A DNA stretch of 64,000 nucleotides from Candidatus Bathyarchaeia archaeon (GTDB taxonomy: Archaea > Thermoproteota > Bathyarchaeia > Bathyarchaeales > Bathycorpusculaceae), in NCBI GenBank assembly GCA_049516875.1, contig JBEKSS010000002.1, forward strand, positions 64,001-128,000, given 5' to 3'. This document shows, one piece after another, positions 2,364 to 55,253 of the stretch. The notes beneath the pieces were generated by a model. The model did no database searches. It was given only the letters and a program-made list of their open reading frames with translations, and was not told the DNA's origin. The translations under genes were made by a program, and so were the position numbers. Each line of letters starts with the position of its first letter. The first letter of the stretch is position 1.

Positions 2364-2470
2364 CGTGCTTCCTAGGCTTTCCTGTTATGGGAAAGATTGA
2401 TGCAATTCGTATTTAAACACGACTATCTGCGCGCGGAGTGGTTTGTGATGTGATGGCATTGTGGTGAGAA

Positions 2471-2518
2471 AGCCCTTGCTTTTGAGTACTCAATTCGTGT
2501 TTTTTTTGGGCTCAAAAC
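2471..2518 (+). repeat. ~50-bp oriented element, left copy
   Basis: agcccttgcttTTGAGTACTCAAttcgtgttttttttgggctcaaaac aligns with 58720-58768 and with the reverse complement of 55111-55159. Confidence 0.8.
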
Positions 2519-2679
2519 GGGTGGTTTGTTGAGGTTTTTGTTGTGCGTGTGTGTAGCGCGCGTGCGTTGTTTGGTGGCTTGGGCTTCTGGTTTTTGTAAT
2601 AAAGGTGTGTTTGATGTTCTGGAGTACATGAATCGGCGGTTCTGATGCGTCCCTGCGAAGTTCTGGTGGCAGGCGTGGG

Positions 2680-2883
2680 TCAGGTGTTGTATTCTTCGTT
2701 TTCTAGGAGTATGGTTGTGGTGATTGTTGTGTTTGTTTGTGGGGTAGGTTTGGGTTTTTGGGGTTTGGTTCTGGAGCCTGTCCAATAGAGGGTCCATCCG
2801 ATTAGCCAGAGGAGGGTTGTGACGGGAAGAAGTATCAGTATAACTGCTCTGTTGCGTACGCGTATGTTTCTAGGCAGTTTCAA
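2680..2883 (-). CDS. Small single-TM protein, paralog of 51870-52076
   Basis: RNRAVILILLPVTTLLWLIGWTLYWTG versus RNRTIRLLFLPIAILLWIIGWTMLWAG. Confidence 0.75.
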   Translation of the reverse strand: MKLPRNIRVRNRAVILILLPVTTLLWLIGWTLYWTGSRTKPQKPKPTPQTNTTITTTILLENEEYNT

Positions 2884-3303
2884 GATTATGCCTGAATGGA
2901 ACTTTGCGGGATGTGGAAATAAGTGTTTTTGACATGTAGGTGTATCTTTGCATGTTATGGTGGGTCTGGTTCGGTTTGGCAGGATGGAGTTTAGGTCGGA
3001 AGCAAAGCATTTGCAGCGTTTGGCGGGGGCTGGAATTGAAGCGTTTGTTGCAATTCTCTGGGTTGAAGTTTTCCGGTTGTTTCGTTATGATGCTTTTGGT
3101 GTTGCGTTTGGGTGTGAATGATATTTTTCGTCGTGGAAGATATGGGACATTGTTCTAGAACATTTGCATAGATGTTACATAGAATATCGTTTAAATAGTA
3201 GGTTTTCAATTTGAAGGGTTTAGGAGAAAGAGATCGCGGACGAATGTGTGAACATGGGTGAAAATGTGTTCGGTTCCGCTCCTGTCAGGGAGGGATTGGT
3301 TTA

Positions 3304-3696
3304 GTGGAGTCTAGGAGCCGGGTTGAGCGGGATGTGTTTCGGGGTAGGGTTAAGGAGGAGTGGGGGCTATTGTGGGCGGAGCGGTTTGATGACAGGGTTA
3401 GGGCTGAAGGGGTTTCTGTTCGGGATTATCCGTTAGTTTTTGCGAGTCGCGGACACGTTATTTTTGCGACCAGGAACGCGAAGGCTCTGAGTTTTTCGCA
3501 GATAATGGCGGTTCACGCGTCTCAGGGTCTGGTTTATTCTCCTGATCCTGACGTTGGGGGGTGGGGCAAGTTTGCCCGGACGTACGTGGGCAGGGTTGCT
3601 CACTTGAGGGCCAGAGCCTTCGTTAACGGGCAGTCCACGCGTGAGAAAGATGGGCAGCATCGGAAGAAGGGCGGCAGGGGCTGGCTTCACAAGTAA
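3304..3696 (+). CDS. Hypothetical protein
   Basis: 130-aa ORF preceded by GGAGG and collinear with downstream genes; no family recognised. Confidence 0.65.
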   Translation: MESRSRVERDVFRGRVKEEWGLLWAERFDDRVRAEGVSVRDYPLVFASRGHVIFATRNAKALSFSQIMAVHASQGLVYSPDPDVGGWGKFARTYVGRVAHLRARAFVNGQSTREKDGQHRKKGGRGWLHK

Positions 3697-9101: not shown

Positions 9102-10316
9102 GTGGGCGAAGTAATGACCGTTCAAAAAAGAAAGAATTCCCAAAAGATATCACCTCTTTGGGTGAGCTTTACAATTTTGGATGTTTTCCTTCATAAAACA
9201 GCTCTTTTAGACATCTTGAGAAAGTTTGCAGAATTCGGACATAAACCTTGTCTCATAGCGGTTCGATCAAGGAATGCGTATCGAAATGAAGATCCACCAG
9301 TGCGCATAATCTCTGTTCCCTTAAGATATGTGCCGCTTGTTTCGCGGGTTATGTTTACTATCATGCTGGTCTTATTTTTACCTCTCTTTATTGTCGTTTC
9401 AAGGCCAGACTTCATCATTTTTGAGCCTGAAATTCATATTCTTGCCTGTTTTCCGGGTCTTTTTGTTTCCAAGTTTAGAAAGGTAAAGGCTGTTTTGGAT
9501 ATTAGAACCGTACCAGTTGAGACTGTGGGATTTCGAGGTTTTCTGCAAAAATTCTGGTTCTCTGTGTCCATTCTTGTAGCTAAGAAATTGTTTGACGGCA
9601 TAACAATTATTACTCCCTCAATGAAGAAAAAAATCTGCAATGACTTCGACTTAAATCCAGACAACGTAGGAGTATGGACATCTGGAGTTTCCGATAGTCT
9701 ATTCAACCCTAAAAATTCCATTCCAGAGAACGCAGAATTGAAAAGAAGGCTGGGATTGACCGGGAAATTTGTTGTTTTCTATCATGGAGTTTTTACTCCT
9801 ACCCGTGGATTGACAGAAACCATTGACGCCATTAAAATATTAATACCCAAATATCCTGACATTGTGTTCTTTCTTCTGGGAGCTGGGCCTTCAGCTTCTA
9901 CGCTGAGCGCCTTGATTCAGAAGGAGGGTCTTCAAGGAAAGGTTATTATCGCCAATCCAGTGGATCACTCGGAAGTTCCGAAGTTTATCGGCATGTGTGA
10001 CGTAGGAATCGTTCCATTGCCTGATCATCCTTATTGGAGGTTTCAGAGCCCACTAAAACTTTTAGAATACTTGGCCATGGAAAAAGTTGTTATTTTGACA
10101 GACATTCCAGCTCATCGGGCCGTAATAGGTGAAGCAAAATGCGGTGTCTATATCTCGTCAGTCAACCAGATGGAAATAGCAAAAGCAATAGAATGTGCTT
10201 ACCTCAACAAGGATTCTCTTAAGGAATGGGGAAAAATCGGTCGGGAAATCGTCAAAAGAGAATATACGTGGGAAAAAGTGGCAGAGAATCTGGAAAATTA
10301 TCTTCTATCGATTTAA
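9102..10316 (+). CDS. GT4 glycosyltransferase
   Basis: FYHG...RGL, SPLKLLEYLAM, YTWEKVA. Confidence 0.9.
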   Translation: MGEVMTVQKRKNSQKISPLWVSFTILDVFLHKTALLDILRKFAEFGHKPCLIAVRSRNAYRNEDPPVRIISVPLRYVPLVSRVMFTIMLVLFLPLFIVVSRPDFIIFEPEIHILACFPGLFVSKFRKVKAVLDIRTVPVETVGFRGFLQKFWFSVSILVAKKLFDGITIITPSMKKKICNDFDLNPDNVGVWTSGVSDSLFNPKNSIPENAELKRRLGLTGKFVVFYHGVFTPTRGLTETIDAIKILIPKYPDIVFFLLGAGPSASTLSALIQKEGLQGKVIIANPVDHSEVPKFIGMCDVGIVPLPDHPYWRFQSPLKLLEYLAMEKVVILTDIPAHRAVIGEAKCGVYISSVNQMEIAKAIECAYLNKDSLKEWGKIGREIVKREYTWEKVAENLENYLLSI

Positions 10317-10507
10317 GAACTGCGCGCCCTAATAGAAGCAATTTCTGCCACAAAGGCTTACGATCGCGCGCGCTCAGAATCATGAAACAAATGGCCTCAA
10401 CGAAAGTAAGGCGAGCTACTGCGCGCGCTAGGATAGCCTCAAAGGTGGCAGTATATATGTGATTATATCATCTTGGGTCATTCCGTCAATCGATTAGTGT
10501 TCTTAGG

Positions 10508-11698
10508 GTGGTATATTTGACTGGAGATGTTAGGAAAACTAGAAAACCTAGAATTGCGGTCATTGGTTCGCGTGGGATTCCAGCAACTTACGGCGGGTTT
10601 GAGACCATAGCTCAAGAGCTAAGTTCGGGATTAGTCAAGAAAGGATTTGAGGTATATGTAAGCTGCGAATCAAAAGGGTTCAAGATCAAGCCTTACGGGA
10701 ATTATCAGGGTGTAAGGCTTGTTTATTTCCCGGTAGTCAACAGTTTGCGAAGTCTTTCAGAAGTGTTCGTATATGATTCATTGTCGGTTTTGTGGACAAC
10801 GCTACGGGTCGATATCATATACATGTTAGGCTATTCCAGTGTTCTAACTTTAATTTTCCCAAAGCTTTTGGGGAGGGTAGTGCTGGTTAATGTTGATGGC
10901 TTGGAGGCTGCAAGACCAAAATTTAATCCATTGCTACGGTTCTTTTATCGCTCTTTTGAGAAATTCGTGACGAAGATAGCCGGGCATATAATTGTAGATT
11001 CCAAGACTATGGGTTTTTATTATCGGCGAAACTATGGAGTGGCACCTATTTATATCCCAAATGGTGGTGGATGCACACTCACTATTAAACCTCTTGATTC
11101 TACGATATTGAAAGCTTATGGCCTTGAAAAAAGGAAGTATTATTTGTTTATTGCAAGACTCACGCCTGATAATAGTATTGACTTGATAATTGATGCATTC
11201 AAGAGGACTAATTCACGAAAGAAATTAATCGTTGTTGGCCCCCTTGTAAAAAACAGTTTCGTCAAAAGATTATTGGCAAACAGAGACGAAAGGGTAGTTT
11301 TTCTTGGAGGCATATATGAGCCCAGACTCCAAAGAACGCTACGTTACAACTGCTACGCTTATATACATGGTCACCAAATGGGCGGTACAAGTGTCTCGTT
11401 GGTTGAAGCAATGAGTTGCAGCAATACTATTCTGGCTTTGGATACTTACAGCAATAGGGAAGTTGCCGAAACTTCAGCAATATACTTCAAAAAGGATGCT
11501 GAAGATTTAAAAGAGAAAATTGAAGCTTTGGAAGAAACCCAGTCCTGCGTTCAAGTTAATGAGACTGCGTATCTTCTTTACCAAAAGAAGTATTCATTGG
11601 ACAACACGGTGGGTAAATTTATTGATGTAATTGAAAATATCGCAGAAGCAAAGAGTCTGGCTCACAAGTATTGTCCATTGGCTTCCAACTTTCGCTAA
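10508..11698 (+). CDS. GT4 with DUF1972 N-terminus (rhamnosyltransferase-like)
   Basis: IGSRGIPATYGGFET, NVDGLE, HGHQMGGTSVSLVEAM. Confidence 0.88.
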   Translation: MVYLTGDVRKTRKPRIAVIGSRGIPATYGGFETIAQELSSGLVKKGFEVYVSCESKGFKIKPYGNYQGVRLVYFPVVNSLRSLSEVFVYDSLSVLWTTLRVDIIYMLGYSSVLTLIFPKLLGRVVLVNVDGLEAARPKFNPLLRFFYRSFEKFVTKIAGHIIVDSKTMGFYYRRNYGVAPIYIPNGGGCTLTIKPLDSTILKAYGLEKRKYYLFIARLTPDNSIDLIIDAFKRTNSRKKLIVVGPLVKNSFVKRLLANRDERVVFLGGIYEPRLQRTLRYNCYAYIHGHQMGGTSVSLVEAMSCSNTILALDTYSNREVAETSAIYFKKDAEDLKEKIEALEETQSCVQVNETAYLLYQKKYSLDNTVGKFIDVIENIAEAKSLAHKYCPLASNFR

Positions 11699-11751
11699 AG
11701 AAGTTAATACTGTGTTTATGGAAGATGATGTAACCTAGGCGGAGACAAAAA

Positions 11752-12627
11752 ATGAAGATACTTGTAACAGGAGCAGCAGGAATGCTCGGCAGTGCTCTAT
11801 GTCCCACGCTAACGCGAAGAGGACACACTGTGTTCTCGACGGATTTAGCCCCAGATGAAGGAATTGAATACTTGGACGTTAGAGATTATAAGCAAATAGA
11901 AACGTCCGTCAGGAAGGTTAAGCCCGATATGGTTATGCATCTAGCAGCTGAGACAGATGTGGATAAGTGTGAACTTGAACCTGATCATGCATTTCTGACA
12001 AATACTATAGGCACTCAGAATGTAGCTCTAGTGTGTCAAAAACGGGGCATTGTGATGGTTTACATTAGTACTATAGGTGTCTTTTATGGGGATAAGCCTG
12101 AACCCTACACGGAGTTTGATAACCCCAATCCGATTAATGTTTATGGTCGAAGTAAGCTTGAAGGCGAGAAGATTGTTCAGAGTCTATTGGAAAGGTACTA
12201 CATAGTTCGAGCGGGTTGGATGGTTGGTGGCGGTCCTGAAAAGGATAAGAAATTTATCGGTAAAATTATGAAACGAATGAATGAAACAACTGTACTGAAG
12301 GCTGTCAATGATAAAATAGGAAGCCCCACATATACTGTTGACTTTTCCAGCTGCTTGGCCGATCTTGTTGAAACCGGATATTATGGCCTTTATCACTGTA
12401 CTAACAAAGGTTATGGTTCAAGATTTGATGTCGCCCAAAAAATTGTCGATTTCTTGGGAAGATCTGGTGTGACCGTTGAGCCTGTTGGTTCTGCGCATTT
12501 TCCTTTGCCTGCAGCACGGGCAAGATCAGAAATGTCCAGAAACTATAAGCTTGAACTGCTCGGCAAGGATACGATGAGGAATTGGGAAGACGCTCTCAAA
12601 GAATACATAAATTCGTGTTGGAAATAA
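11752..12627 (+). CDS. rmlD: dTDP-4-dehydrorhamnose reductase
   Basis: GAAGMLG, AAETDVDKCE, YGRSKLEGE, GSPTY. Confidence 0.9.
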   Translation: MKILVTGAAGMLGSALCPTLTRRGHTVFSTDLAPDEGIEYLDVRDYKQIETSVRKVKPDMVMHLAAETDVDKCELEPDHAFLTNTIGTQNVALVCQKRGIVMVYISTIGVFYGDKPEPYTEFDNPNPINVYGRSKLEGEKIVQSLLERYYIVRAGWMVGGGPEKDKKFIGKIMKRMNETTVLKAVNDKIGSPTYTVDFSSCLADLVETGYYGLYHCTNKGYGSRFDVAQKIVDFLGRSGVTVEPVGSAHFPLPAARARSEMSRNYKLELLGKDTMRNWEDALKEYINSCWK

Positions 12628-12779
12628 GCTTGCGTTCAATTGAAGTTCTGCTGAGTTTTCCTTTTTCCATCTTTTCATTTCTTTCCTTCTTCCAGCTTAA
12701 GCTTAGATGTAAGTCCTAGTTCGACCATCAAAAAGAGTTACCTACGCTAAATCAAGCGGCACTTATCGGGACTTACGCC

Positions 12780-14024: not shown

Positions 14025-14168
14025 TGGGTTCAAGTGAACAATTGGCGCGCACCGGCTTATTGCTAAATCGATCGATCTTTGTGTCAACCAGTTTGTCCAG
14101 AATTCAAGAAACGGAATTGAAACCATTCTTGACCATTTTTTACCCTTTTCGGAACAGCCATGCGCCCC

Positions 14169-14223
14169 ATGGGCATGGTTAAATATTCTCTCCCAGTTAA
14201 CAATGGGCATGTTTAAATATTCT
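14169..14223 (+). promoter_or_regulatory. Tandemly duplicated TATA-like promoter
   Basis: atgggcatg(g/t)TTAAATAttct occurs twice (14169-14189 and 14203-14223), ~40-80 bp upstream of ATG 14261. Confidence 0.5.
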
Positions 14224-14260
14224 TCTCGATTTCTTATGGATTGGGAGAAGGTTAGGCTAT

Positions 14261-16564: not shown

Positions 16565-16599
16565 CCATTTTGGCACGCAGTTGGAATTCCCACCCTGGG

Positions 16600-43973: not shown

Positions 43974-44675
43974 TTAGAAGACGATTTTGCGACAGTGAAA
44001 GGCTTCAGCGTACTTGCTTGGTGAATTGGATTCTACGCCTCGAATTCTCAGTATCGATCTAAAGGTCTCTTCAGTGAACCAGTGTTTTTTCTTCTGGGTC
44101 TTGAAGATGCTAGAGATGAGGCTTATTTTCATTTGAACGAGTGGCTCGTCGAGGTGAACGTAGAAGTTTGGGATTCCCAGGTCTCCGTCGTATTTTGGGA
44201 CTTCATACTCGAGGATGAAATGGTCCCTAAACGTGTTCCAAGTCAGATCGGAGATCAAGCGATGATCTTGATGAGCATCGTTGCTGTAGTGAGTTAATAC
44301 CATATCGGGAGAGAATTCCTTCTTTAGCTTCTCAAAGTAGTCCTTGATGTGCGCGCCAACAAATGGGAAATAGGATTCTCTGAACTGTTGGATGTCTATC
44401 TTCTTCAACTTGACGTCTTTCAGAAAAGCGTTTGCGCCTTCCCATGCCTCTTTGCCTCGTCTTGCGTTCCCACTGAGTACAGACCAGTAGAACTGAACGT
44501 CGCCCCGCTCTACTAGTCTCAGGATGGTGCCTCCACACCCGATTTCTATGTCGTCTGGATGCGAGCCCAAACATAAGACGTTTAATCTTGGAGATTTCTC
44601 AGGGAATTTGAGTTTAAGCATTCCAGATTGCCCCACGGTAATTTCTAACTGTTCGTATTTTTCCACACCTCCCAA
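43974..44675 (-). CDS. PIG-L/LmbE family deacetylase
   Basis: SHPDDIEIGCGG, HQDH, YEVPKYDGD. Confidence 0.9.
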   Translation of the reverse strand: MGGVEKYEQLEITVGQSGMLKLKFPEKSPRLNVLCLGSHPDDIEIGCGGTILRLVERGDVQFYWSVLSGNARRGKEAWEGANAFLKDVKLKKIDIQQFRESYFPFVGAHIKDYFEKLKKEFSPDMVLTHYSNDAHQDHRLISDLTWNTFRDHFILEYEVPKYDGDLGIPNFYVHLDEPLVQMKISLISSIFKTQKKKHWFTEETFRSILRIRGVESNSPSKYAEAFHCRKIVF

Positions 44676-45430
44676 GGCGCTTTACGTCCGGAGGCCAGTT
44701 CATCCAGCCGCTGCTTATCCTTGTATGTATCTAGGTTTGCCCAGAATCCATCATACTCGTATGCAACTAGTTCACTTCTCTTGATTAATCGTTGAAAAGG
44801 CTCGTCTACCAGATCTTCCCCCTCATTAATGTAATCAAATATCTCGTTCTTGAAAACGAAGAATCCTCCGTTAATTATCATGCCGGATTGACTTGCGTGG
44901 CGAATACTTTTGACACGACCGTCAGTGCCTGTTGAAACAACATGGAACGTGCCGAAGGTTTTCACAGCAAGAAAACAGCCTATCTTTCTGCGTTTGATAA
45001 AGAAATCAATCAACTTAGGAAGGTACAAATCAGTGACAGCGTCACTGTAATTGGCCAAAAACGCTTCTTCCCCTTCTAAGTATTTCTGAACTGCCTTCAA
45101 TCTCTGTCCAACATTTGAGTGCAAGCCTGTCTCAACGAAGGTGATTCTCCAATCTTCAATGTCACTCTTGAGCAGTTGCCGTTCTTTGCCTCCGTTCGAG
45201 AGAATGAAATCGTTCGAGAGGCATTCGTCGTAGTTCAAGAAGAATCTCTTGATCTGTTCCCCTTTGTAGCCAAGGCAGAGGACGAAGTCCTTATGTCCAA
45301 AGTGGGCATAATATTTCATGAGATGCCATAAGACGGGTTTTTCTCCGATGGTGACCATGGGTTTCGGAACGTTCTCAGTGCTGGGATAGAGTCTCAATCC
45401 CAAGCCGCCGCAAACCAAGACAACTTTCAT
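44645..45430 (-). CDS. rfbF: Glucose-1-phosphate cytidylyltransferase
   Basis: GGLGLRL..PKPM, LGYKG, INGGFF, GFWANLDT, APWEVW. Confidence 0.88.
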   Translation of the reverse strand: MKVVLVCGGLGLRLYPSTENVPKPMVTIGEKPVLWHLMKYYAHFGHKDFVLCLGYKGEQIKRFFLNYDECLSNDFILSNGGKERQLLKSDIEDWRITFVETGLHSNVGQRLKAVQKYLEGEEAFLANYSDAVTDLYLPKLIDFFIKRRKIGCFLAVKTFGTFHVVSTGTDGRVKSIRHASQSGMIINGGFFVFKNEIFDYINEGEDLVDEPFQRLIKRSELVAYEYDGFWANLDTYKDKQRLDELASGRKAPWEVWKNTNS

Positions 45431-45449
45431 TCATTTCCCTCTCTTTGTT

Positions 45450-46727
45450 CTAGGTAACATTGCAAGTTTCGCTGCAGTTCGCATCGTAAATCTTCACCTC
45501 TGGTATCGGTACAATGAATCTGCCACCCCACTGACCTATATATGACATCTGTTTCATTATTTCATCTTTCAGGTTCCAAGGTAGAATCAGCACGTAATCA
45601 GGCTTGGTTTCTTTTATCCTATCAGGATGGAAGATAGGGATGTGAGTTCCTGGCAGAAACTTTCCTTGCTTGTAATGGTTTCTATCAACAGTGTAGTCGA
45701 GGAAGTCCGATCGGACGCCACAGTAATTGAGAAGAGTATTACCCTTGCCTGGAGCACCGTATCCGACGATTGATTTCTTTTTTCGCTTGAGACTGATTAA
45801 CGAGCCTAAGAGATCTCTCTTTGTTTCTTTGACCTTTTCGGTGAACGAGAAGTATTTTTCAAGGTCCGTGAAACCCTCCGTGTTTTCTCTAGCTCTCAAC
45901 TCATCCACATGGCGAGTTACACGCTTGGATCTGTCCTCGCTGTGTCGAGCATAGATCCTTAGAGAGCCACCATGAGTAGGCAGTTCGTCGACGTCAAAAA
46001 TAGTTAAGCCGTGTGCGGCAAACACTCTTTCAGCGGTGAGGAAGGAGAAATATGAGAAATGCTCATGATAGATTGTGTCAAATTGGTTTCCATCCATTAA
46101 TTTCATCAGATGTGGGAACTCCATGGTGATGGTGCCCTTCGGTTTGAGTAGGATCTTCATGCTTTTCACGAATCCGTTGAGGTCGGGTACCTGAGCCAAT
46201 ACATTGTTTCCAATTAATAGATTGGCATGTTTTTTCTTCGCCGCTAGTTCATTAGCAGTCTTCAAGCCGAAGAATTTGACAGTAGTTGGTATTCCGTTTC
46301 TGATAGCTGCCGCCGCAACATTAGCCGCTGGCTCTACACCCAGGACTGGTATGCCTTTTCGAGCGAAGTATTGAAGAAGATAGCCATCGTTGCTGCCTAT
46401 TTCCACTACTTGACTTTTTCTATCTAACCCAAGTCTGTCAATAATCATTTCAGCATAGTTCTTGGCATGGTTCAGCCATGTTTCAGAGTATGACGAGAAG
46501 TATGCATATTCGGTGAAGATTCTTTCAGGAGACACGTACTCTTCCAGTTGAACCAAGAAACAGTTCTTGCAAACATGGGCATGCAGCGGATAGAAGGGCT
46601 CCATCTGGTTCAATTGATCTGGGCCCAAATAGCTTTCACAGAGAGGTTGCATTCCCAGGTCGACAAACGTATGTTGCAGTTCTGATCCACAGAATCTGCA
46701 TCGAGGCAACTCAGTTTTCTTGCTCAT
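45450..46727 (-). CDS. NDP-sugar C-methyltransferase
   Basis: CRFC, DLGMQP, EIGSNDG, DTIYHEH, HGGSLR, YGAPGKGNT. Confidence 0.9.
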   Translation of the reverse strand: MSKKTELPRCRFCGSELQHTFVDLGMQPLCESYLGPDQLNQMEPFYPLHAHVCKNCFLVQLEEYVSPERIFTEYAYFSSYSETWLNHAKNYAEMIIDRLGLDRKSQVVEIGSNDGYLLQYFARKGIPVLGVEPAANVAAAAIRNGIPTTVKFFGLKTANELAAKKKHANLLIGNNVLAQVPDLNGFVKSMKILLKPKGTITMEFPHLMKLMDGNQFDTIYHEHFSYFSFLTAERVFAAHGLTIFDVDELPTHGGSLRIYARHSEDRSKRVTRHVDELRARENTEGFTDLEKYFSFTEKVKETKRDLLGSLISLKRKKKSIVGYGAPGKGNTLLNYCGVRSDFLDYTVDRNHYKQGKFLPGTHIPIFHPDRIKETKPDYVLILPWNLKDEIMKQMSYIGQWGGRFIVPIPEVKIYDANCSETCNVT

Positions 46728-46958
46728 TCATTTTCCTCAAGGTGTCAATCGATTAATTCCTTGAGATTGATCGACGTTACTGAAGCTAAATAGTTTTTGC
46801 CACATTGCTTAATCGCTCGAATTCAGACACCAAATCAGCGCGCACTGCTTCCAGCGCGCGCGCAAATCAGACTAGAGGAATTCTATAGAAGGGTCATCCA
46901 GTCTGATTTATAAAGACGATACCGCAAAGATCCTTATACAAAGTAGCAGGGTGGAACT

Positions 46959-48788
46959 GTGAAGAAAATTATTCGAGGTCTTGCCATAGCGATTATTTTT
47001 TGTGCTATGCTGACTACAGCATATGGATCGAATGTGTATGGTTTTTCGCAAAAAATCAGCCTATCTAATTCTTCAACGTCTTCGTTCCCACAAAACGGGA
47101 TGGTGAGCATAGCTTTTGACGATAGCTTACAAAGCCAGTACGACTATGCTTTGCCTCTGCTAAAAGCGAAAGGAATGCACGCGACATTCTATGTTATCTC
47201 GGATCGTGTTGGTAAAAGTGGTTACTTGACTGTTTCAGAACTGCAGGATTTGCAAAGCAACGGAAATGAAATAGGTAGCCACAGCAAAACCCATCCAGGT
47301 TTCACGGGAATTTCAGACGCACAGATTCAACAAGAATGTTCGGTTTCAAAGCAAGTCTTACAATCGTATGGCTTGACAATCAACAATTTTGCCTATCCAT
47401 ATGGTGACTGCAACACACACACCGACTCCATAGTCAGCCAATACTACAGGTCGGCAAGATCAGCCTATGATTACCCTTACATCATGCAACTTCCGACAAC
47501 ACAGTTCAGATTGTTGGCAACAGCTGGAAACATACAGACCTATATTACAGAGCTTCAAGGATACGTTAACAATGTGATAGCATCTAAAGGATGGGCAATA
47601 ATAGTGTTCCACGATGTCGTTCCGAGTGCTGGTGACTGGCAGACAAGCACGCAAGTTTTTAGCCAATTCTTGGACTACTTGGAAGCCAATGGTGTGGAAG
47701 TATTGACTGTGAACCAGGCCCTAGACATGGGTTCGCGTGATGTCGACATAACTAGTGTAGTGCCCTCCGCTGTACAAGCCGTCCCCGGAACAATCATCGA
47801 CATAAACGTCACTGCGAGAAATGAAGGGGCAATGACGGAGACTTTCAACATTACCACGTATTATGATAACAACGAGATTGGCACTCAAACTGTCACCGAC
47901 TTGGCTTCCGGAGCAAACAGAACCATCACCTTTGGCTGGAATACTAATGCTGTGCCATTTGGTGACTATACGATCAAGGCAATAGCAAGCACGGTTCCCG
48001 AAGAGGTAGACACAGCGGACAACACATACGTCGGCGGCACAGTAACAATATTCGGACCACCAATAGCCAGCTTCACTTACTACCCATCAAACCCTTACAT
48101 CAATCAACCCGTTCTGTTTAATGCATCATCATCCACACCGGATGGCGGAACCATCACAAATTGCCTGTGGGACTTCGGTGATGGCAATATTACATCAGCG
48201 GCCAGCACCATAACGTCTCACGTATATACCTTGGGCGGAACTTACAACGTTGCGCTAACAGTGACCAACACTGAAGGCCTAAATGGGTCGGCATCCGAAC
48301 TGGTGACAGCAGAAGTCATGGTAGCGGACATCTTTTCTGTAGCATCCAACTCAACCGTTTCTGATCTGTCATTCAATTCGACAAGCTTGGAGCTAGGCTT
48401 CACCGTGGCTGGCCCCTCAGGCACGACAGGACTCACAAGAGTGACAATCGCAAAAACTTTCGTGGCAAATGTCACAAATCTCAAAGTGTTCTTGGACGAA
48501 AAACCGTGGCAGTATTCAGTCACCGAAACAGGGGATTCATGGGTGGTATCCTTTACATACACGCACAGCACTCATTACATAATGCTAGCTTTGAATCCTT
48601 CTCGCTTACGTGGCGATGTGAACAATGATGGACAGGTCAACATGCTGGACGTGAGCATGGTAGTCGCAGCTTTTGGTTCGAAGCCCACAGATACAAGATG
48701 GAATTCTGCAGCAGACTTGGACAACAATGGAATAATAAACATCAGGGACATAGCCATAGTAGTTAGAGAATTCGGAAACACAGTCTAG
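46959..48788 (+). CDS. Secreted polysaccharide deacetylase with CARDB, PKD and dockerin domains
   Basis: FDD, HSKTH, FAYPYG; WDFGDG; GDVNNDGQVNMLD...DLDNNGIINIRD. Confidence 0.87.
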   Translation: MKKIIRGLAIAIIFCAMLTTAYGSNVYGFSQKISLSNSSTSSFPQNGMVSIAFDDSLQSQYDYALPLLKAKGMHATFYVISDRVGKSGYLTVSELQDLQSNGNEIGSHSKTHPGFTGISDAQIQQECSVSKQVLQSYGLTINNFAYPYGDCNTHTDSIVSQYYRSARSAYDYPYIMQLPTTQFRLLATAGNIQTYITELQGYVNNVIASKGWAIIVFHDVVPSAGDWQTSTQVFSQFLDYLEANGVEVLTVNQALDMGSRDVDITSVVPSAVQAVPGTIIDINVTARNEGAMTETFNITTYYDNNEIGTQTVTDLASGANRTITFGWNTNAVPFGDYTIKAIASTVPEEVDTADNTYVGGTVTIFGPPIASFTYYPSNPYINQPVLFNASSSTPDGGTITNCLWDFGDGNITSAASTITSHVYTLGGTYNVALTVTNTEGLNGSASELVTAEVMVADIFSVASNSTVSDLSFNSTSLELGFTVAGPSGTTGLTRVTIAKTFVANVTNLKVFLDEKPWQYSVTETGDSWVVSFTYTHSTHYIMLALNPSRLRGDVNNDGQVNMLDVSMVVAAFGSKPTDTRWNSAADLDNNGIINIRDIAIVVREFGNTV

Positions 48789-48850
48789 AATCCTACCTTG
48801 GAATCTTATTCCGAGAAAATTCTGAACGTGCGCGCTAAACGAGCGCGCGC

Positions 48851-48955
48851 CCTGAAAAACCCAGGCAACCTAGCCCTCGCCCTGAAAGCCTTAACCATGA
48901 CAGTCGCAATGATAGCACTATACTTTCAAGACCTGAGAATAATCTTCACCGACGC
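48851..48955 (+). pseudogene. Possible N-terminal fragment of an exosortase/archaeosortase-like membrane protein
   Basis: LALKALTMTVAMIALYFQDLRIIFTDA resembles, from recall, such N-termini; ends at CGCGCGC 48953. Confidence 0.4.
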
Positions 48956-49065
48956 GCGCCACGTTTGGAAAACCAGGATGACCGGCAAAAGTCGAGAACA
49001 CAAGCGTCTGAGCGTGTGGAAGCAGATAATAACCCGTAGCTCAAAGTAGAAAAGAGGAGTCCAAA

Positions 49066-49890
49066 GTGCGCGTAGGAATAAACCTAGTAAGCTCAGCAAG
49101 TGTGACAATGCTTCTGCTGGGCACGATATCCCTAGTAGCTTCAATAGGCTATAATTCATCCATACTTGCTTTCATAGGCCTAGGCCTAGTCTTCTGGGGA
49201 GCAGTTCTCCTCTACATCAAACCCGAACGATACGCGAAAAAAACCCTCTTGGAAGCCGCATTGTCACCTTCTCTCACAACATTAAACCAGATGATCCTGG
49301 AACTCGGCTACAAAGGAGACGCCACATACCTCCCCCCAAAATACTTCACAGATCCAGAGACCACCCGGATGTGCGTGTCAAAATACAAGTATACAAGCCT
49401 TCCAACGCCAGAACAAATCCAACCATACGAGGACCAACCCTTAGCCCAAACCGCGCAAGGCCTGCTGCTCACACCGCCCGGGTTTGAGCTGTCAAAACTG
49501 CTGGAAAAGTCACTCGGAAAGAGCTTCATCAAAACAGACCTCGAAAGCCTCCAGCAGAGCCTCCCAAAAATCTTCATCGAAGACTTGGAAATCGCCGAAA
49601 ACCTGGAACTGCAAGCAGACACTTTCAACAAAAAAGAAGGCGTAACTGCATATGTCACTCAGGTGAGGAACACCACGGTCCACGCAACAATAACCAAACC
49701 GATCATTAGAAACAAACTCGAAGAGGCTGAACAAACCTCGCAGATAACCAGCTCAATCTTCTTCCCGCTCTGCAGCGCCATCGCCATAGCCATAACCAAG
49801 GCAACAGGCAAACCAGTAAGAATAACAGACACTATGAGCTCCGAGGACGGCAATGTTATAGAGGCCAGCTTCGAAATCGTGGAGGAATAG
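49066..49890 (+). CDS. Conserved archaeal membrane protein
   Basis: Two N-terminal TMs, YLPPK, TPPG, PLCSAIA. Confidence 0.75.
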   Translation: MRVGINLVSSASVTMLLLGTISLVASIGYNSSILAFIGLGLVFWGAVLLYIKPERYAKKTLLEAALSPSLTTLNQMILELGYKGDATYLPPKYFTDPETTRMCVSKYKYTSLPTPEQIQPYEDQPLAQTAQGLLLTPPGFELSKLLEKSLGKSFIKTDLESLQQSLPKIFIEDLEIAENLELQADTFNKKEGVTAYVTQVRNTTVHATITKPIIRNKLEEAEQTSQITSSIFFPLCSAIAIAITKATGKPVRITDTMSSEDGNVIEASFEIVEE

Positions 49891-49894
49891 CGCA

Positions 49895-50107
49895 ATGGAT
49901 TTTCCCATGTCATTCTGGGACATGAGCCTGTGGCTAGCCATCACAGCCATAATCCTACTCGTAACATCAGAACTCATCTCATCGTACTACGGAAAAACAA
50001 ACCCCCCCATCAACGAAAACAGACTACGAAATGTAGCACTAGCCGTCTCAACACTCTTCCTCGCAACAGTGGCTGTAAGAATAGTCACCATCATAATCAG
50101 CCCGTAA
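49895..50107 (+). CDS. Small two-TM protein
   Basis: SLWLAITAIILLVTSELIS...RLRNVAL; collinear with neighbours. Confidence 0.7.
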   Translation: MDFPMSFWDMSLWLAITAIILLVTSELISSYYGKTNPPINENRLRNVALAVSTLFLATVAVRIVTIIISP

Positions 50108-50329
50108 CGCGGAAAGAAACACGAAGACCAACGCGCTTGCAACCCACATTCTATACAGCGACAAACATGAAGGCACGTCTGGATTCCATGCAGACACAGA
50201 ATTCTGCGGCCGCACGTGCCTCCGGTGGAAACGCTGTTTCTTACAACAACGAAACAACGTTAACATAGAAGCATAAACCCTAAAACCTACAATAAACCTA
50301 ACAAGCCAACAGCCAAGGAGCCAACACAT

Positions 50330-50989
50330 TTGCCCAAAAAACCCGCCGAAGACGAACTGGACCAACAGATAATCCGCACCGTTGAAACGGAAAAACCAGA
50401 AACCATCCAACATCTAATCGACCAAGTACAGGCACTGTCATCAAAACCCAAACAGGAAATATTGGACCGAATACTGCAACTACAGCAAACAGAAAGAATC
50501 CACCTCAAACCAGCCCAAACAGCAACCCCGGAAAAGCTCACCAGCTACCTGCGCTCAAACCAAGCCCTCTGGTACTGGATCACCATGGCACTCACGATAG
50601 CCACAGCCATAGTCGTGTTCACTGTCCCCGAAGACGCCTTCCCACTAGTGTACCTAAGATACGTCCTAGGCACAGCGTTCGTCCTGTGGCTGCCAGGCTA
50701 CGCCTTCACAAAAGCCCTCTTCCCACAAAACCTTCCATTCGCCAAAGCCCTAGCACGCTCATCCGACACGTCTGAAAAAGAGTTGGACGCCATTGAACGC
50801 ATAGCCCTGAGCGTGGGCATGAGCATTGCACTCGTCCCCATCGTCGGCTTGCTCCTAAACTACACACCGTGGGGCATTCGTTTAACACCCATAGTCCTAA
50901 GCCTGCTCGCGTTGACCACAATCTTCGCCACAGCCGGAATCATAAGGGAACATCAAACCAGAGCCCCCCAAAAACGCAAGCCCAAATAG
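50330..50989 (+). CDS. DUF1616-like protein (N-terminal membrane part)
   Basis: RYVLG..FVLWLPGY..ALFP, ERIALSVGMSIA, LLNYTPWGI. Confidence 0.8.
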   Translation: MPKKPAEDELDQQIIRTVETEKPETIQHLIDQVQALSSKPKQEILDRILQLQQTERIHLKPAQTATPEKLTSYLRSNQALWYWITMALTIATAIVVFTVPEDAFPLVYLRYVLGTAFVLWLPGYAFTKALFPQNLPFAKALARSSDTSEKELDAIERIALSVGMSIALVPIVGLLLNYTPWGIRLTPIVLSLLALTTIFATAGIIREHQTRAPQKRKPK

Positions 50990-51169
50990 GCGCGCGCTAC
51001 TGAAACCAAAACAGTCAAGGTCGAGCAAACTCCGTCAAAACTCGACAACACGAAACCATCGACAAGAAATAAAAAAAGGACAGATGCCATCCCTTTTGAC
51101 AGCATAATCCCAAAACAGTCAGGGTCGACTGGTTTCCGATCGCACGGGTATCGCTGGTGCCCTGTAGAA

Positions 51170-51628
51170 CTATTGTGTTGCTGTGATGGTTATGTCGAAG
51201 CTGAAGGTTGTGATGCCGGTGATGCTTGATGAAACCGTAAGGCTCAGCACGGCCTGGACAGATGCGCCCACTGCAAGCACGTAACCAGCCCTGTTCCAAG
51301 TCAGCGTGAAGTAGCTTGAAGCCGAACTTGGGTTCCAGTTGCCCGCACTTATGCTTAACGTGACTGGCACGTTGCCCTCGTTCTTCAGGTAAATCGTCGC
51401 CGTTGACGTCCCGCCGGCATTCAATGTTCCCCAACTGACGCTCGATAGCGCGGATGTACATCCGCTGTCTGAGTACACGCCCAGCTGCACCGATGGCGGC
51501 GTGACGACTGCGATGTTGCCCGTGTTCGAGACTGTGCGAGTCGCAACTAATGAGCCCACCGCGCTAGTGACTAGGGCCATAACCGCTAATACTAGGACCG
51601 TTCCCATGGTTGCTTTTTGCATAGCCAT
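51170..51628 (-). CDS. Small secreted Ser/Thr-rich beta-sandwich protein
   Basis: Signal peptide, VSNTGNI, SWGTL, YLKNEGN, FSFDITI. Confidence 0.75.
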   Translation of the reverse strand: MAMQKATMGTVLVLAVMALVTSAVGSLVATRTVSNTGNIAVVTPPSVQLGVYSDSGCTSALSSVSWGTLNAGGTSTATIYLKNEGNVPVTLSISAGNWNPSSASSYFTLTWNRAGYVLAVGASVQAVLSLTVSSSITGITTFSFDITITATQ

Positions 51629-51869
51629 AATCTTTCACTAAGACAAACAGGGTAATCTGAAGTCTTAATAAACATTATTGTCCACACAAACAACACAAAT
51701 ACACATCACAAAACATACACACAACCAAAAACATGCAAAAACAACCCCAAAAACCACAATAATGTACAACACACCACAAAACACATCCCAACTACTTATC
51801 CCAACTTCATAAAAGCTTTAACTAAGCATAACACGAGTCAACCGTCCGACCTCCAAAAAAAGGCCGTAC

Positions 51870-52076
51870 GTGGTCAACTCTATGCGCAACAGAACAATCA
51901 GGCTACTGTTCCTGCCAATCGCAATACTCCTCTGGATAATCGGATGGACCATGCTCTGGGCAGGCACCCGCAAAGAGCAAAAAACTCAACAAACCCAAGC
52001 CGAAACCGCCGCAGAAAACGAGTCCATAACCATAATACCTATGATATCTGAAGAACAAGAACAATGCGAAGCCTAA
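51870..52076 (+). CDS. Small single-TM protein, paralog of 2680-2883
   Basis: LLWIIGWTMLWAG motif and acidic tail. Confidence 0.75.
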   Translation: MVNSMRNRTIRLLFLPIAILLWIIGWTMLWAGTRKEQKTQQTQAETAAENESITIIPMISEEQEQCEA

Positions 52077-52174
52077 CCGGCGCGCGTTCGATCGATCACA
52101 CAAACAGCTAAATCACAAAAACCGTTAAATATGTTCTAACCCTCTTGAGCAAAGCCTGAAAGGATGGAAAGACC

Positions 52175-53803
52175 ATGGAAAAAGCGCTGGAGATGGGCAA
52201 GACCTCAGCCACTGGAAGCTTCCAGCTGCTCATAGGCGTAGCCTCATCCACCATAATAATGGCCGTCGGAACAATAATCCTGACGAGGCTCTTGGGGAAC
52301 GGCAATTACGGCTTGTACGTTTTGGCTATGGCTCCCAGCGTCACGATAAACCTTTTTCGAGACTGGGGAGTCAACAGCGCCATGACCAAGTACGTGGCCA
52401 GGCTTCGAGCCGAAAACAAGGAACTGGAAACCTGCGACGTGGTCGCCGCCGGGATGGCCTTCGAAGTTGCTACCGGCGTGGCCCTGTCCTTCCTGTCCTT
52501 CGTTCTGGCAGGATTCTTCGCATCAATCCTCAAGAGACCCGAGATTTACCCGTTCATATCAATCATGTCCCTCACGATACTCTCAGGTTCACTGCTAGCG
52601 GCCGCGCAATCCTGCTTCATCGGCTACGAAAGAATGAACCTAAACAGCTTCACAGTAATCTGTCAAGCCATCGTCAAAACCGCTGTTGGCCCCGTCTTGG
52701 TTCTCCTCGGATACGGAATCCTCGGCGCCACGCTCGGCTTAACTCTGTCCTTCGTCGCGGCAGGAGTAATCGGAGTCGCCACACTCTACCTCATCCTTTA
52801 CAGGCCCCTCAGCAAACGCAGAAAAGCCAAGCGCAGCATTGTCGAAACCCTGAAACCAATGCTAAGATACGGCGTACCGCTCAACATATCCGGCATCCTG
52901 CTAGGCCTGCTAGGCCAGCTCTACACTCTGTTGATGGGCATCTACATCCCCAACACAGCCGCAGGAAACGGATTGATAGGCAACTACGGCGTTGCGGTTA
53001 ACTTCACCGTGCTTCTAACGTTCTTCACCCTCCCAATCGGAACCGTCCTGTTTCCCGCTTTTGCGAAGCTCGACTCGCAGAACGAGCATGAACTACTCAA
53101 GACAGTCTTCGCATCCTCCGTCAAATACACCGCGATACTCCTCATACCCGCAACGATGGCCGTGATGGCCCTTTCAACCCCGATAGTCAACACGCTGTTC
53201 GGCGAAGCATACGCCTACGCACCCTTCTTCCTAACCCTGATAGTCATCACCACCCTGTTCGCAGCCGTGGGCAGCCTCACCCTGAGCAGCTTCCTGACAG
53301 GCCTCGGCGAAACAAAAGTGCTGATGAAACAAGCCGTCCTCACGCTGCTCATCGGCCTGCCCCTAGCATTCCTGCTCATCCCGCCGTTCGGAATACTGGG
53401 GAACATAATCGGAAGCTCTATAGCGGGAATTCCAAGCATGATATGGGGCCTCTACTGGGTGTGGAAACACTACCAAGCCAAAGCCGAACTCCGCTCATCC
53501 GCAAAAATCTCCACAGCCTCAGCCCTCGCCGCCATCGCATCCTTCCTGACCACTACACTTCTGCACACAGCCGCATGGATACAGCTCATCATCGGCCTCG
53601 CCGTCTTCCTAATCATCTACGTACTCGGAGCCCCCCTCATCGGCGCAATATACCAATCCGACATCGACGCCCTACGACACATGTTCTCAAGCCTGGGCAT
53701 CGTCTCAAAAATAATCAACATCCCACTAAAAGCAGCAGAGAAAGCCGCACAGACCAGAGCACGCCACAGGACGCCGGAAGAACCAGAACAACGCGAAGCC
53801 TAG
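52175..53803 (+). CDS. Oligosaccharide flippase (Wzx/MOP family)
   Basis: About 14 TMs, RLLG..NYG, VLFPAFAKL. Confidence 0.88.
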   Translation: MEKALEMGKTSATGSFQLLIGVASSTIIMAVGTIILTRLLGNGNYGLYVLAMAPSVTINLFRDWGVNSAMTKYVARLRAENKELETCDVVAAGMAFEVATGVALSFLSFVLAGFFASILKRPEIYPFISIMSLTILSGSLLAAAQSCFIGYERMNLNSFTVICQAIVKTAVGPVLVLLGYGILGATLGLTLSFVAAGVIGVATLYLILYRPLSKRRKAKRSIVETLKPMLRYGVPLNISGILLGLLGQLYTLLMGIYIPNTAAGNGLIGNYGVAVNFTVLLTFFTLPIGTVLFPAFAKLDSQNEHELLKTVFASSVKYTAILLIPATMAVMALSTPIVNTLFGEAYAYAPFFLTLIVITTLFAAVGSLTLSSFLTGLGETKVLMKQAVLTLLIGLPLAFLLIPPFGILGNIIGSSIAGIPSMIWGLYWVWKHYQAKAELRSSAKISTASALAAIASFLTTTLLHTAAWIQLIIGLAVFLIIYVLGAPLIGAIYQSDIDALRHMFSSLGIVSKIINIPLKAAEKAAQTRARHRTPEEPEQREA

Positions 53804-53857
53804 CTCATAGCCTTAGCGAACCAGTCCATCCTATCGTCAGCCTTTCAGCCCGAACAT

Positions 53858-55117
53858 TTGAAAAAGGGCGGCCGCCGACAGCCAAGGGACAGTATGAAAC
53901 GTTTTTCCCGATTCTTCCAACAACCCGCCTTCCACAACTATGACTGCAGAGACGCTTTAAACGACCCAACCAGATCAGCGGAACACGCCTCCTGGACAAA
54001 TCCTAAATACTATCCTCACTCACAAACCTTCTCAGAACACCACCGTATCAGCCAGAATGCGAGATGCAACAAAGTGATTGAACGCATAATACTTGTCACG
54101 GGTGGAGCCGGCTTCATAGGCAGCCATTTGACCCAAGAGCTGCTAAACCAGGGACACAAAGTAACCATACTCGACAACTTCTCAAACGGAAAAATGAAGA
54201 ACATTCAACACTCGCTGGGCAACCCTTCCCTAGCCATAGTCAAAGAAGACCTAAAAAGACCGAAGAAACTGAGGCAAATCATAAACGCCTCGGACACAAT
54301 CTTCCATCTGGCCGCAAACCCCGAGGTAAAATTGGGCGAAACCGACCCTAAAACGCATTTTGAAGAAAACATCCTCGCAACCTTCAACCTGCTCGAGACC
54401 ATGAGAAAAAGTGGAAAACCAAAAACCCTCGTCTTCACCTCAACATCCACCGTGTACGGAGAAGCCACACAGGTTCCAACAAGAGAAGACTACGCTCCGC
54501 TCATACCCATCTCAACCTACGGCGCCTCAAAACTCGCCTGCGAAGCCCTCATCACAAGCTACGCCCACACGTTCAACCATCGAGCCCTCATCCTGCGCCT
54601 CGCCAACATCATCGGCCCAAGATCAAACCACGGAATCATAGTCGACTTCATCAAAAAAATCAAGGCCAACCCCACAGAACTCACGATACTCGGCGACGGA
54701 AACCAAAAAAAATCCTACATGTACATAACAGACTGCACAAGCGCAATCATCCACCTGACCGAAACCTTCTCCAAAAGCACCCAAAAAACCGACATCTTCA
54801 ACCTGGGCTCCAACGACAAGATAACCGTCACACAAATCGCAAAAACCCTCGCACAACTGATGAACACACCCAACATAGAATACAAGTTCACCGGCGGAGT
54901 CGACGGCGGAAGAGGATGGAAAGGCGACGTCAAAACCATGCAACTATCCATAGACAAACTAGCCAAAACCGGATGGAAACCAAACTACACAAGCAAACAA
55001 GCCGTAAAACTGGCCGCAAAAGCCCTAATCCAAGAAAACACCACACCTCAACAAACCCACGCAAACAGGCCAAACACCAAGAAACAACCAAACCCACAAC
55101 CCCGCACAGCGTTTTGA
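53858..55117 (+). CDS. UDP-glucose 4-epimerase-like
   Basis: VTGGAGFIG, HLAANPEV, YGASK, GRGWKGDV; true start near 54074; stop codon lies inside the repeat element. Confidence 0.9.
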   Translation: MKKGGRRQPRDSMKRFSRFFQQPAFHNYDCRDALNDPTRSAEHASWTNPKYYPHSQTFSEHHRISQNARCNKVIERIILVTGGAGFIGSHLTQELLNQGHKVTILDNFSNGKMKNIQHSLGNPSLAIVKEDLKRPKKLRQIINASDTIFHLAANPEVKLGETDPKTHFEENILATFNLLETMRKSGKPKTLVFTSTSTVYGEATQVPTREDYAPLIPISTYGASKLACEALITSYAHTFNHRALILRLANIIGPRSNHGIIVDFIKKIKANPTELTILGDGNQKKSYMYITDCTSAIIHLTETFSKSTQKTDIFNLGSNDKITVTQIAKTLAQLMNTPNIEYKFTGGVDGGRGWKGDVKTMQLSIDKLAKTGWKPNYTSKQAVKLAAKALIQENTTPQQTHANRPNTKKQPNPQPRTAF

Positions 55118-55160
55118 CACTCAGAAGAATCACGGATTGAGCACTCAAACACAAGGGCTC
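55111..55160 (-). repeat. ~50-bp oriented element, right (inverted) copy
   Basis: Reverse complement is 47/50 identical to 58719-58768. Confidence 0.92.
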
Positions 55161-55253
55161 AAAACCCAGCATACGAGGCGCGCCGTCCGAAACCTAAATG
55201 AAGGCACAGCCTCATTACGTCTGGTATTTTAGCGGAAAACGGAGGATAACAAG

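Follow-up and report, generated by a model that had tools for sequence, protein, structure and literature searches.

The glycan island and its GATC tracts

The window, as the whole stretch analysed here is called, comprises 64 kb (G000:C2:64001-128000) of the metagenome-assembled genome (MAG) of a Candidatus Bathyarchaeia archaeon and contains a surface-glycan gene island in which two kinds of short palindromic tract were identified, GATC-periodic tracts and (GC)n tracts. The genome (G000) comprises 2.43 Mb in 20 contigs with 47% GC and is 97% complete, the window being 2.6% of it. Its PurA, on whose relatives the taxonomic placement rests, shows 83% identity to PurA of Candidatus Bathyarchaeia MAGs, and no small-subunit (SSU) rRNA gene was identified in the MAG. 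The features of the window are collected in Table 1; positions given without a contig are those of the window. Between 8 and 48 kb, the 2-kb bins of the window have a GC content of 39-47%, the genome value being 47%, and housekeeping genes (HtrA-like protease, PurA and Cbf5) are located 3' of the island.

Counting from 8 nt upward, the window contains 24 GATC tracts of 8-19 nt and 20 (GC)n tracts of 8-13 nt, the outermost of both kinds starting at 10365 and ending at 52097. An earlier reading of the letters alone (the sequence-only reading) had listed 22 and 20 of them and had taken both kinds together as the junction marks of one candidate gene-shuffling system. All were recovered, the GATC tracts with coordinates off by at most 1 nt, including the longest of each kind (19 nt for GATC; 13 nt, 21813-21825, for (GC)n), and two further 8-mers, at 35356 and 39429, were absent from its list. 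The stretches it had described as free of tracts, 1-2400 and 55.2-64 kb, indeed contain none of at least 8 nt. The two kinds of tract are two separate, superimposed phenomena and not one. The GATC tracts measure 2 to 4.75 units and their flanks show no conservation; only 3 of the 24 are exactly GATCGATC, only 4 are contained in open reading frames (ORFs) of at least 100 aa, and 7 are packed in a debris stretch of 1.5 kb, the patchwork 42472-43973.

The GATC tracts are concentrated in the window, which holds 24 of the 68 identified in the whole genome (binomial P 6e-21). The density of GATCGATC is 23 times the whole-genome value, and the density of non-coding GATC tracts is 1.75/kb against 0.041/kb elsewhere (43-fold). 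Two or more full GATC units are present in 22 of the 24 window tracts and in only 17 of the 44 located elsewhere, and the phases of the latter are uniform, so the 44 tracts outside the window are at chance level. No other doubled 4-nt palindrome is enriched in the window to the degree of GATCGATC, and AATTAATT occurs 0 times in it. The hyper-abundance across a whole genome and the fixed length of a highly iterated palindrome (HIP) are both lacking in (GATC)n.

The GATC tracts are real and stable in independent assemblies. Two contigs from other metagenome assemblies overlap the island: L082 (13,173 nt), which differs by 2 single-nucleotide polymorphisms (44507 and 44548) without gaps and carries 13 tracts unchanged in length, and L081 (2,358 nt), which is identical and carries 6 unchanged tracts. 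For a 10-kb stretch with 11 tracts, four sequencing runs contain 95-99% of the sampled 31-mers; two of these, not flagged as a possible source, contain 95-97%. The runs containing the sequence are peat and wetland metagenomes. In Hi-C, laboratory fill-in and blunt ligation of ^GATC ends gives GATCGATC, the ligation signature of ^GATC enzymes. This chemistry would be identical to the one proposed below, and fragments bounded by GATCGATC resemble ligation concatemers. The tracts are nevertheless natural, present in ordinary shotgun assemblies and mostly not exactly 8 nt long; no AATTAATT or mixed junction words were found, and the fragments beside the tracts show 41-86% identity to other loci and are never identical copies, which speaks against proximity-ligation chimeras. 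An artefact of proximity ligation or of assembly is hardly credible.

Junctions at the GATC tracts

The GATC half of the shuffling claim is a real, local and unusual junction mark. Joins of unrelated or non-contiguous DNA, or short insertions, lie within 6 nt of 7 of the 24 tracts (14067, 15062, 16870, 42904, 43096, 43194 and 43431). The other 17 are without such evidence, 4 of them (35356, 39429, 32775 and 42562) lying 11-25 nt from a junction; the first of these four, an 8-nt tract ATCGATCG, may have arisen by chance. Of 77 homology-boundary clusters listed automatically, 5 are no more than 5 nt from a tract, where 0.8 would be expected (P 0.0016), and 8 are no more than 20 nt from one, where 2.0 would be expected (P 0.001).

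At 16870-16883 the two GT4-derived pieces of Table 1 meet in reversed order: the left piece (16748-16865) shows 85.6% nucleotide identity to 10948-11065, within a GT4 gene, and the right piece (16883-17014) shows 75% identity to 10281-10413, which comprises the final part of the adjacent GT4 gene and its spacer. At 15062-15074 the homology of a C-terminal domain to two paralogues begins 0-6 nt after the tract, which therefore marks a domain fusion. The patchwork contains four of the others. There, a captured gene fragment has a tract on each side, and the 3' remnant of a second flippase gene, with 74-80% nucleotide identity to the intact 541-aa gene of the congener G003, begins its homology with that gene within the last 2 nt of the tract 43096-43106. 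The tract 42904-42916 is part of a pure 16-nt insertion, formed by one GCGC and three GATC units, which is absent from the G003 orthologue; read by eye, the loss of one GATC unit would restore the frame of the remnant. The sequence-only reading had placed tracts at gene ends, pseudogene borders and a domain fusion; gene-fragment borders or a fusion were indeed found at 16870, 15062, 43096, 43194 and 43431, together with the insertion at 42904. Beside the tract 16673-16681, the stretch 16565-16732 of the patchwork spacer resembles a dockerin by eye, but no Pfam match confirmed this.

Tetranucleotide repeats in surface-glycan genes are the contingency loci of Haemophilus and Neisseria, and slippage could in the same way turn expression of the glycan genes on or off (phase variation). 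The locus does serve the synthesis of surface glycans, the tetranucleotide repeats are concentrated in it, the 19-nt tract is in the 5' region of a gene, and the frameshift at 42904 is correctable by the loss of a single unit. A contingency repeat, however, is located inside the ORF or promoter of the switched gene, whereas these tracts are mostly intergenic (7 being in debris), very short, of the same length in L082 as in the MAG (13 of 13), and mark rearrangement junctions; slippage leaves these junctions and the 16-nt insertion unaccounted for. Phase variation is considered very improbable. As for a site-specific cassette system of the integron or shufflon type, the recombinase or integrase gene that would characterize it was not found at the locus: no recombinase, integrase or transposase family was identified among 50 window ORFs with Pfam or among 7 with NCBIfam (5 of these without a Pfam family).

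Other repeats and elements are present in the window, where no Rfam family and no tRNA gene was identified. A dispersed repeat of ~65 nt, with copies near the left edge and at the right edge of the island, has two more copies (58705-58768 and 58855-58913) in a spacer at 58.7-58.9 kb; BLAST matches it dozens of times across 12 or more contigs, and it has no Rfam match. The 5' part of the aldo/keto reductase ORF contains a 60-nt unit repeated 3.0 times (26592-26768, 82% matches), ~85 nt past the 19-nt GATC tract. The 66-nt tandem repeats at 30504-31159, within the NosD/beta-helix ORF 30120-31787, are coding repeats of beta-helix proteins, and related ones were identified on C6, C10, C11 and C14. 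A 304-nt element (35002-35305) shows 90% identity to C15:17602-17904, and shorter copies of its first 50-160 nt are found on C1, C3, C6, C7, C9 and C14. Finally, a small ORF with a PQ-loop/MtN3 (SemiSWEET-like) domain lies on the minus strand at 32986-33276, amid apparent gene debris.

Table 1. Features of the window, with positions counted from its first letter
Feature	Position	Strand	Context
Surface-glycan gene island	9102..55117		Pfam scans: GT2 and GT4 glycosyltransferases, sugar epimerases/dehydratases, methyltransferases, B12 radical-SAM enzyme, flippase, dockerin/PKD proteins
GATC tract, 11 nt	14067..14077		43 nt past the stop of GT4 gene 12780-14024; copy of C7-contig sequence begins 4 nt on
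GATC tract, 13 nt	15062..15074		In frame in ORF 14261-15625; domain-fusion point
GATC tract, 9 nt	15756..15764		Intergenic; 12 nt past (GC)5 tract 15735-15744
GATC tract, 11 nt	16550..16560		Final codons of methyltransferase ORF 15773-16564; stop 4 nt on
GATC tract, 9 nt	16673..16681		Patchwork spacer 16565-17207
GATC tract, 14 nt	16870..16883		Exact join between non-contiguous paralogue pieces
GATC tract, 10 nt	19886..19895		Intergenic
GATC tract, 9 nt	23842..23850		32 nt past end of homology with related island L083
GATC tract, 19 nt (longest, 4.75 units)	26488..26506		5' region of aldo/keto reductase ORF, upstream of Pfam domain start
GATC tract, 12 nt	28529..28540		Degenerate GATC-like flanks; Tandem Repeats Finder (TRF): 28529-28547
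GATC tract, 11 nt	32775..32785		~25 nt upstream of 5' fragment of polysaccharide deacetylase gene
GATC tract, 11 nt	32941..32951		ORF-poor stretch 32596-33739
8-nt tract ATCGATCG	35356..35363		Single full GATC unit; a dispersed-repeat copy ends 19 nt away
GATC tract, 8 nt	39393..39400		Spacer 39007-39556
8-nt tract	39429..39436		One full GATC unit; 13 nt from fragment like residues 122-164 of 208-aa protein encoded on contig C5
GATC tract, 12 nt	41390..41401		33 nt past the stop codon of oxidoreductase gene 41434-42471 (-)
GATCGATC	42562..42569		Upstream of oxidoreductase gene; kept in 96%-identical contig L092, 11 nt inside homology boundary
GATC tract, 10 nt	42602..42611		Patchwork 42472-43973
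GATC tract, 13 nt	42904..42916		Part of 16-nt insertion frameshifting the flippase remnant
GATC tract, 11 nt	43096..43106		5' truncation point of flippase remnant
GATC tract, 10 nt	43194..43203		Left border of captured gene fragment
GATC tract, 13 nt	43431..43443		Right border of captured gene fragment
GATC tract, 11 nt	43741..43751		Patchwork 42472-43973
GATC tract, 10 nt	52088..52097		Upstream of intact flippase gene 52175-53803
Two GT4-derived pieces, reversed order	16748..17014	+	Joined across tract 16870-16883
Captured gene fragment	43204..43436	+	Like residues 48-126 of 255-aa protein C3:165792-166556, 50-57% amino-acid identity; GATC tract on each side
Second flippase gene, 3' remnant	42657..43095	-	Residues 389-523 of paralogue 52175-53803
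(GC)4 tract	42636..42643		~20 nt past stop of flippase remnant; homology with G003 orthologue ends here
GT2 gene, 3' fragment	29815..30054	-	Residues 223-302 of paralogue 38089-39006; gene-end side abuts (GC)n tract 29820-29828
(GC)n tracts (20), 8-13 nt	10365..50997		Starts: 10365, 10421, 14759, 15735, 16368, 16607, 21037, 21813, 29820, 31831, 32607, 32681, 33329, 35997, 39643, 41114, 42636, 46854, 48843, 50990
Dispersed repeat copy, ~65 nt	2471..2527		Near left edge of island
Dispersed repeat copy, same repeat	55106..55174		Right edge of island

The (GC)n word and the palindromes of related genomes

The (GC)n word belongs to the genome and the genus and not to the island. The genome contains 416 (GC)n tracts, of which the 20 of the window represent 1.8 times the genome density (P 0.008), and up to 10 are found per 10-kb bin elsewhere against at most 6 in the window. 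GCGCGCGC is the most frequent octamer of G000, with 447 overlapping occurrences; it is present 168-646 times in all five genomes of the genus, about twice the CGCGCGCG control, and at most 30 times in 13 of the 14 other genomes of the family. The length is near-fixed, 240 tracts being of 8 nt, 112 of 9 nt, 56 of 10 nt and 8 longer, and the usual context is tA-GCGCGCGC-Ta (A before in 245, T after in 233). Only 87 of the 416 lie within ORFs of at least 100 aa (79% are intergenic), though such ORFs form 81% of the genome, and the density of the tracts increases as coding density drops (Spearman -0.45, 241 bins). In the congener G004, one gene-poor stretch of 10 kb with few long ORFs (L179, G004:C35:1-10000) is dense in the word, with 14 tracts. 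The sequence-only reading had held that tracts equally dense throughout the genome would refute its claim; in that comparison (GATC)n is confirmed, while the (GC)n half fails, being genome-wide, genus-wide, intergenic and of near-fixed length.

The nearest known likeness is HIP1 (GCGATCGC) of cyanobacteria, which is likewise the commonest 8-mer, common to related genomes, of near-fixed length and with semi-conserved flanks. The differences are the word itself (HIP1 occurs 16 times in G000), the archaeal host, the intergenic position of 79% of the copies and the lack of an identified C5 methylase. The GATC tracts are not HIP-like, being local, of variable length and at chance level elsewhere. 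Nothing was found in the literature searched on an archaeal iterated palindrome, nor on GCGCGCGC as an intergenic palindrome; (GC)n is an undescribed archaeal HIP-like word, though ordinary for G000.

The (GC)4 word tends to lie just downstream of genes and at homology ends. Of the 329 tracts that are not wholly contained in an ORF, 55 have a gene 3' end at most 30 nt away, compared with 217 of 2000 intergenic positions drawn at random; gene starts are avoided (18 of 329 against 218 of 2000). With most tracts intergenic and palindromic, this preference would suit cis-regulatory sites at which a dimeric regulator or a nucleoid protein controls the glycan operons. Such a role for the palindromes is quite improbable: the GATC tracts vary in length from 8 to 19 nt, their flanks are not conserved, and 7 of them are crowded in 1.5 kb of debris, with others at fragment borders and inside a pseudogene.

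With respect to homology ends, orthologue homology stops exactly at a (GC)4 tract in two cases, the 3' end of the oxidoreductase gene (L083, where a 76-nt fragment of another gene begins 6 nt past the tract) and the spacer after the flippase remnant (G003). In a comparison with 800 kb of G003, 15 of 180 (GC)n tracts have the end of a BLAST block no more than 5 nt away; for positions shifted locally the number is 3.9 +/- 1.8, and 400 shuffles never gave more than 10. This excess is only suggestive, because a tract confined to one lineage amounts to a cluster of mismatches, at which a BLAST extension tends to stop. At the tract 10365-10373, a paralogous spacer copy has other bases instead (11 against 10 nt) between conserved flanks, which suggests that (GC)n tracts may arise or vanish by substitution.

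Doubled 4-nt palindromes were also identified in other genomes. GATCGATCGA (both strands) is present 36 times in G000, 0-8 times in four congeners and 26 times in G021, of another family, where the tracts are intergenic, dispersed among unrelated non-glycan genes and clustered in ORF-poor spacers, and where GCGCGCGC is lacking. (GATC)3 is present in 31 of 301 genomes of the class, with the highest number, 7, in G000. The backwards control CTAGCTAGCTAG is found 3-22 times in five genomes (G089, G107, G135, G142 and G147; four of family f31 and one of f27) and 0-1 times in the rest, and looks like a third lineage-specific doubled 4-nt palindrome; together with the GATC of G021, it indicates that the doubled 4-nt palindrome differs from lineage to lineage. 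Just one GATC tract is present in each of the related islands L083 and L084. In the congener G004, a 2.2-kb segment beside a NACHT-domain gene has a 13-nt GATC tract on either side and contains two genes, one of them of the DUF6602 family; the synteny with G000 ends 30-85 nt before the first of these tracts and not at it.

These observations bear on the main rival explanation, in which the tracts come first: (GC)4 and (GATC)n would be lineage-specific iterated palindromes that dispensable DNA acquires through substitution, slippage or biased repair, and the self-complementary microhomologies would then attract illegitimate or microhomology-mediated crossovers, the junctions being a consequence of the tracts. 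It fits (GC)4 well, as a genome-wide, mostly intergenic word of near-fixed length, replaced by other bases in the spacer copy, at which orthologue homology ends exactly in two cases and near which BLAST blocks end (a test biased by the mismatch cluster). The palindromes of other lineages also agree with it: GATC is dispersed in G021, and the counts of CTAGCTAGCTAG reach 22 in a distant family. It fits GATC less well, since outside the island the GATC tracts are at chance level and offer no pre-existing pool for recombination; besides, a 16-nt insertion in an otherwise collinear gene is not a crossover product. As a whole, this explanation is rated as rather unlikely.

End joining, restriction and the origin of the GATC tracts

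A complete operon for non-homologous end joining (NHEJ) was identified in G000 (L161, G000:C9:90981-94517). It encodes a LigD Prim-Pol, Ku and an ATP ligase with a LigD_N phosphoesterase domain, so that ligase, polymerase, phosphoesterase and Ku are all present; the Ku match (E 1.7e-40) lies between the gene of the LigD Prim-Pol and that of the ligase plus phosphoesterase. Ku was identified in 4 of 31 related genomes (G000, G002, G004 and G010), and complete NHEJ is described as rare in archaea (bioRxiv 10.1101/2023.09.30.560322). Accounts of bacterial NHEJ report templated insertions (fill-in) at restriction-made 5' overhangs in mycobacteria (PMC4176160) and the capture of heterologous DNA into genomic breaks in Sinorhizobium meliloti (PMC6379672). 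Nothing relevant was found in the literature on GATCGATC in connection with end joining.

Host avoidance of a site is expected under restriction, and GATC is avoided genome-wide, the observed/expected ratio (O/E, Markov) being 0.64 both for G000, the window excluded, and for 800 kb of G003. Of the 230 GATC sites in the window, 52 belong to tracts; with these set aside, the island is about as poor in GATC as its host. This depletion is what resembles a Type II restriction-modification (R-M) system acting on incoming DNA; the difference is that no GATC-specific enzyme family was detected and that relatives with a DpnII-family gene are without tracts. Among DNA methylase candidates, PF01555 has 7 matches in G000. 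Two (C13 and C7:10981) are THUMP/UPF0020-type methyltransferases, which are taken here to be RNA methyltransferases, and only one, on C8, is a putative beta-class N4/N6 DNA methylase whose closest solved relatives are N4-cytosine methylases and DpnA. A 377-aa neighbour of the C8 methylase was considered as a nuclease; it has no PDB, Pfam or NCBIfam relative and cannot be so called. The sequence-only reading had supposed end joining together with enzymes cutting at GATC or GCGC: genes for the first are present in the Ku-LigD operon, and for the second no GATC or GCGC restriction enzyme was found and no gene of the DpnII/MboI, MutH/Sau3AI, Dam (D12) or C5-methylase families was identified.

The GC content of the island below the genome mean, the single GATC tract in each of L083 and L084, and the dispersed intergenic GATC tracts of G021 would agree with a donor signature, that is, with the import of the island or parts of it from a Bathyarchaeia lineage with native intergenic (GATC)n, like G021. 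This origin is nonetheless improbable. Outside the tracts the island is roughly as GATC-poor as its host, it carries the host-type (GC)4 at 1.8 times the genome density, and the tracts lie within broken gene copies whose nearest relatives are of the same genus. A close donor was not identified either, the best match to the radical-SAM gene among 300 genomes of the class having only 43% identity. An 8-kb piece of the island compared with 4 congeners gave a single 450-nt match, in one of them.

The GATC tracts may instead be the scars of homology-free break and re-join in a hypervariable glycan island, by way of GATC overhang fill-in, a reading that is quite possible though somewhat short of probable. 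Breaks with GATC 5' overhangs would be filled in and blunt-joined, and repeated cycles of cut and repair would add GATC units beyond two. The joining events would comprise deletions, truncations, a domain fusion, the capture of stray gene fragments and small pure insertions. End joining would account for the joins, the fragment capture and the insertion, and GATC overhang fill-in for the repeat unit. The most plausible setting would be the restriction of unmethylated incoming DNA by a putative nuclease; if cutting is confined to such DNA, no tract excess would be expected in the remaining chromosome, gene-poor regions included, although the genus avoids GATC. The likeness to the Ku-LigD NHEJ of mycobacteria and Sinorhizobium meliloti comprises the four predicted activities encoded in one operon, junctions without homology, small insertions and captured gene fragments. 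The differences are a filler that is always the same palindromic unit, in up to 4.75 copies, and an orthologue without GATC at two sites.

Several observations weigh against this reading of the tracts as fill-in scars. At 13 of the 24 tracts there is no junction evidence either way, their flanks lacking an available homologue, and the truncated end of the GT2 fragment (30054) has no tract nearby. The sequence-only reading had proposed checking in related genomes whether breakpoints coincide with tracts; the homology with the related islands L083 and L092 does end near tracts but mostly not exactly at them (11-32 nt off; for L083, 32 nt before the tract 23842). The G003 orthologue, 74-80% identical, lacks GATC at both testable tract positions, so the tracts are not simple duplications of an existing site, as an insertion copying the overhang of an earlier cut would be, unless the true parent differed from G003. 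Left partial units of 0, 1, 2 and 3 nt are found in 10, 5, 4 and 5 tracts, where plain fill-in predicts about 75% with zero, a weak test, since end nibbling would blur it. With regard to the enzymes, no DpnII/MboI, MutH/Sau3AI or D12 Dam match (PF04556, PF02976 and PF02086) and no C5 methylase family was found in the 97% complete genome, the controls being matched in both searches; restriction enzymes are diverse and the absence of such a system is not proven. GATC tracts are lacking in both relatives that carry a gene of the DpnII family (G020 and G026), the congeners G002 and G004 encode Ku and have few tracts, and in G021, with its 26 GATCGATCGA matches, no Ku was found. The missing orthologue GATC, the many partial units and the tracts of G021 without detected Ku weigh against the simple version in particular.

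In L092, a metagenome contig of a close strain with 96%-identical flanks, a single ORF (L092:647-1840) takes the place of the debris that separates the PIG-L-family gene from the oxidoreductase gene. Its similarity to two GT2 genes in the window is weak (26-28%), and an Lrp-like N-terminal part was recognized by eye only.

A stronger form of the scar reading is a natural 'DNA shuffling' of incoming glycan clusters, in which a putative GATC nuclease would cut unmethylated DNA and Ku-LigD would re-join it in new orders, each round leaving one GATC scar unit and GCGCGCGC being an older, saturated GCGC product. The new orders would result in domain fusions, gene remnants and new cassette orders. 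This form is unlikely. Of the interpretation given by the sequence-only reading, the junction scars are partly supported, at the 7 tracts described above, whereas a dedicated shuffling system, as opposed to repair scars, is unproven, and nothing found here distinguishes the two in its favour.

Hypervariable glycan islands are found in most free-living prokaryotes, and their homology-free rebuilding is poorly understood, especially in uncultured archaea. Joins that carry a readable mark would allow the breakpoints, their order and perhaps their number to be counted in metagenomes, and here the mark may be linked to an operon for end joining of a kind seldom present in archaea (4 of 31 relatives). 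The archaeal counterpart of HIP1, GCGCGCGC, would be a second, independent system in which to study how iterated palindromes arise.

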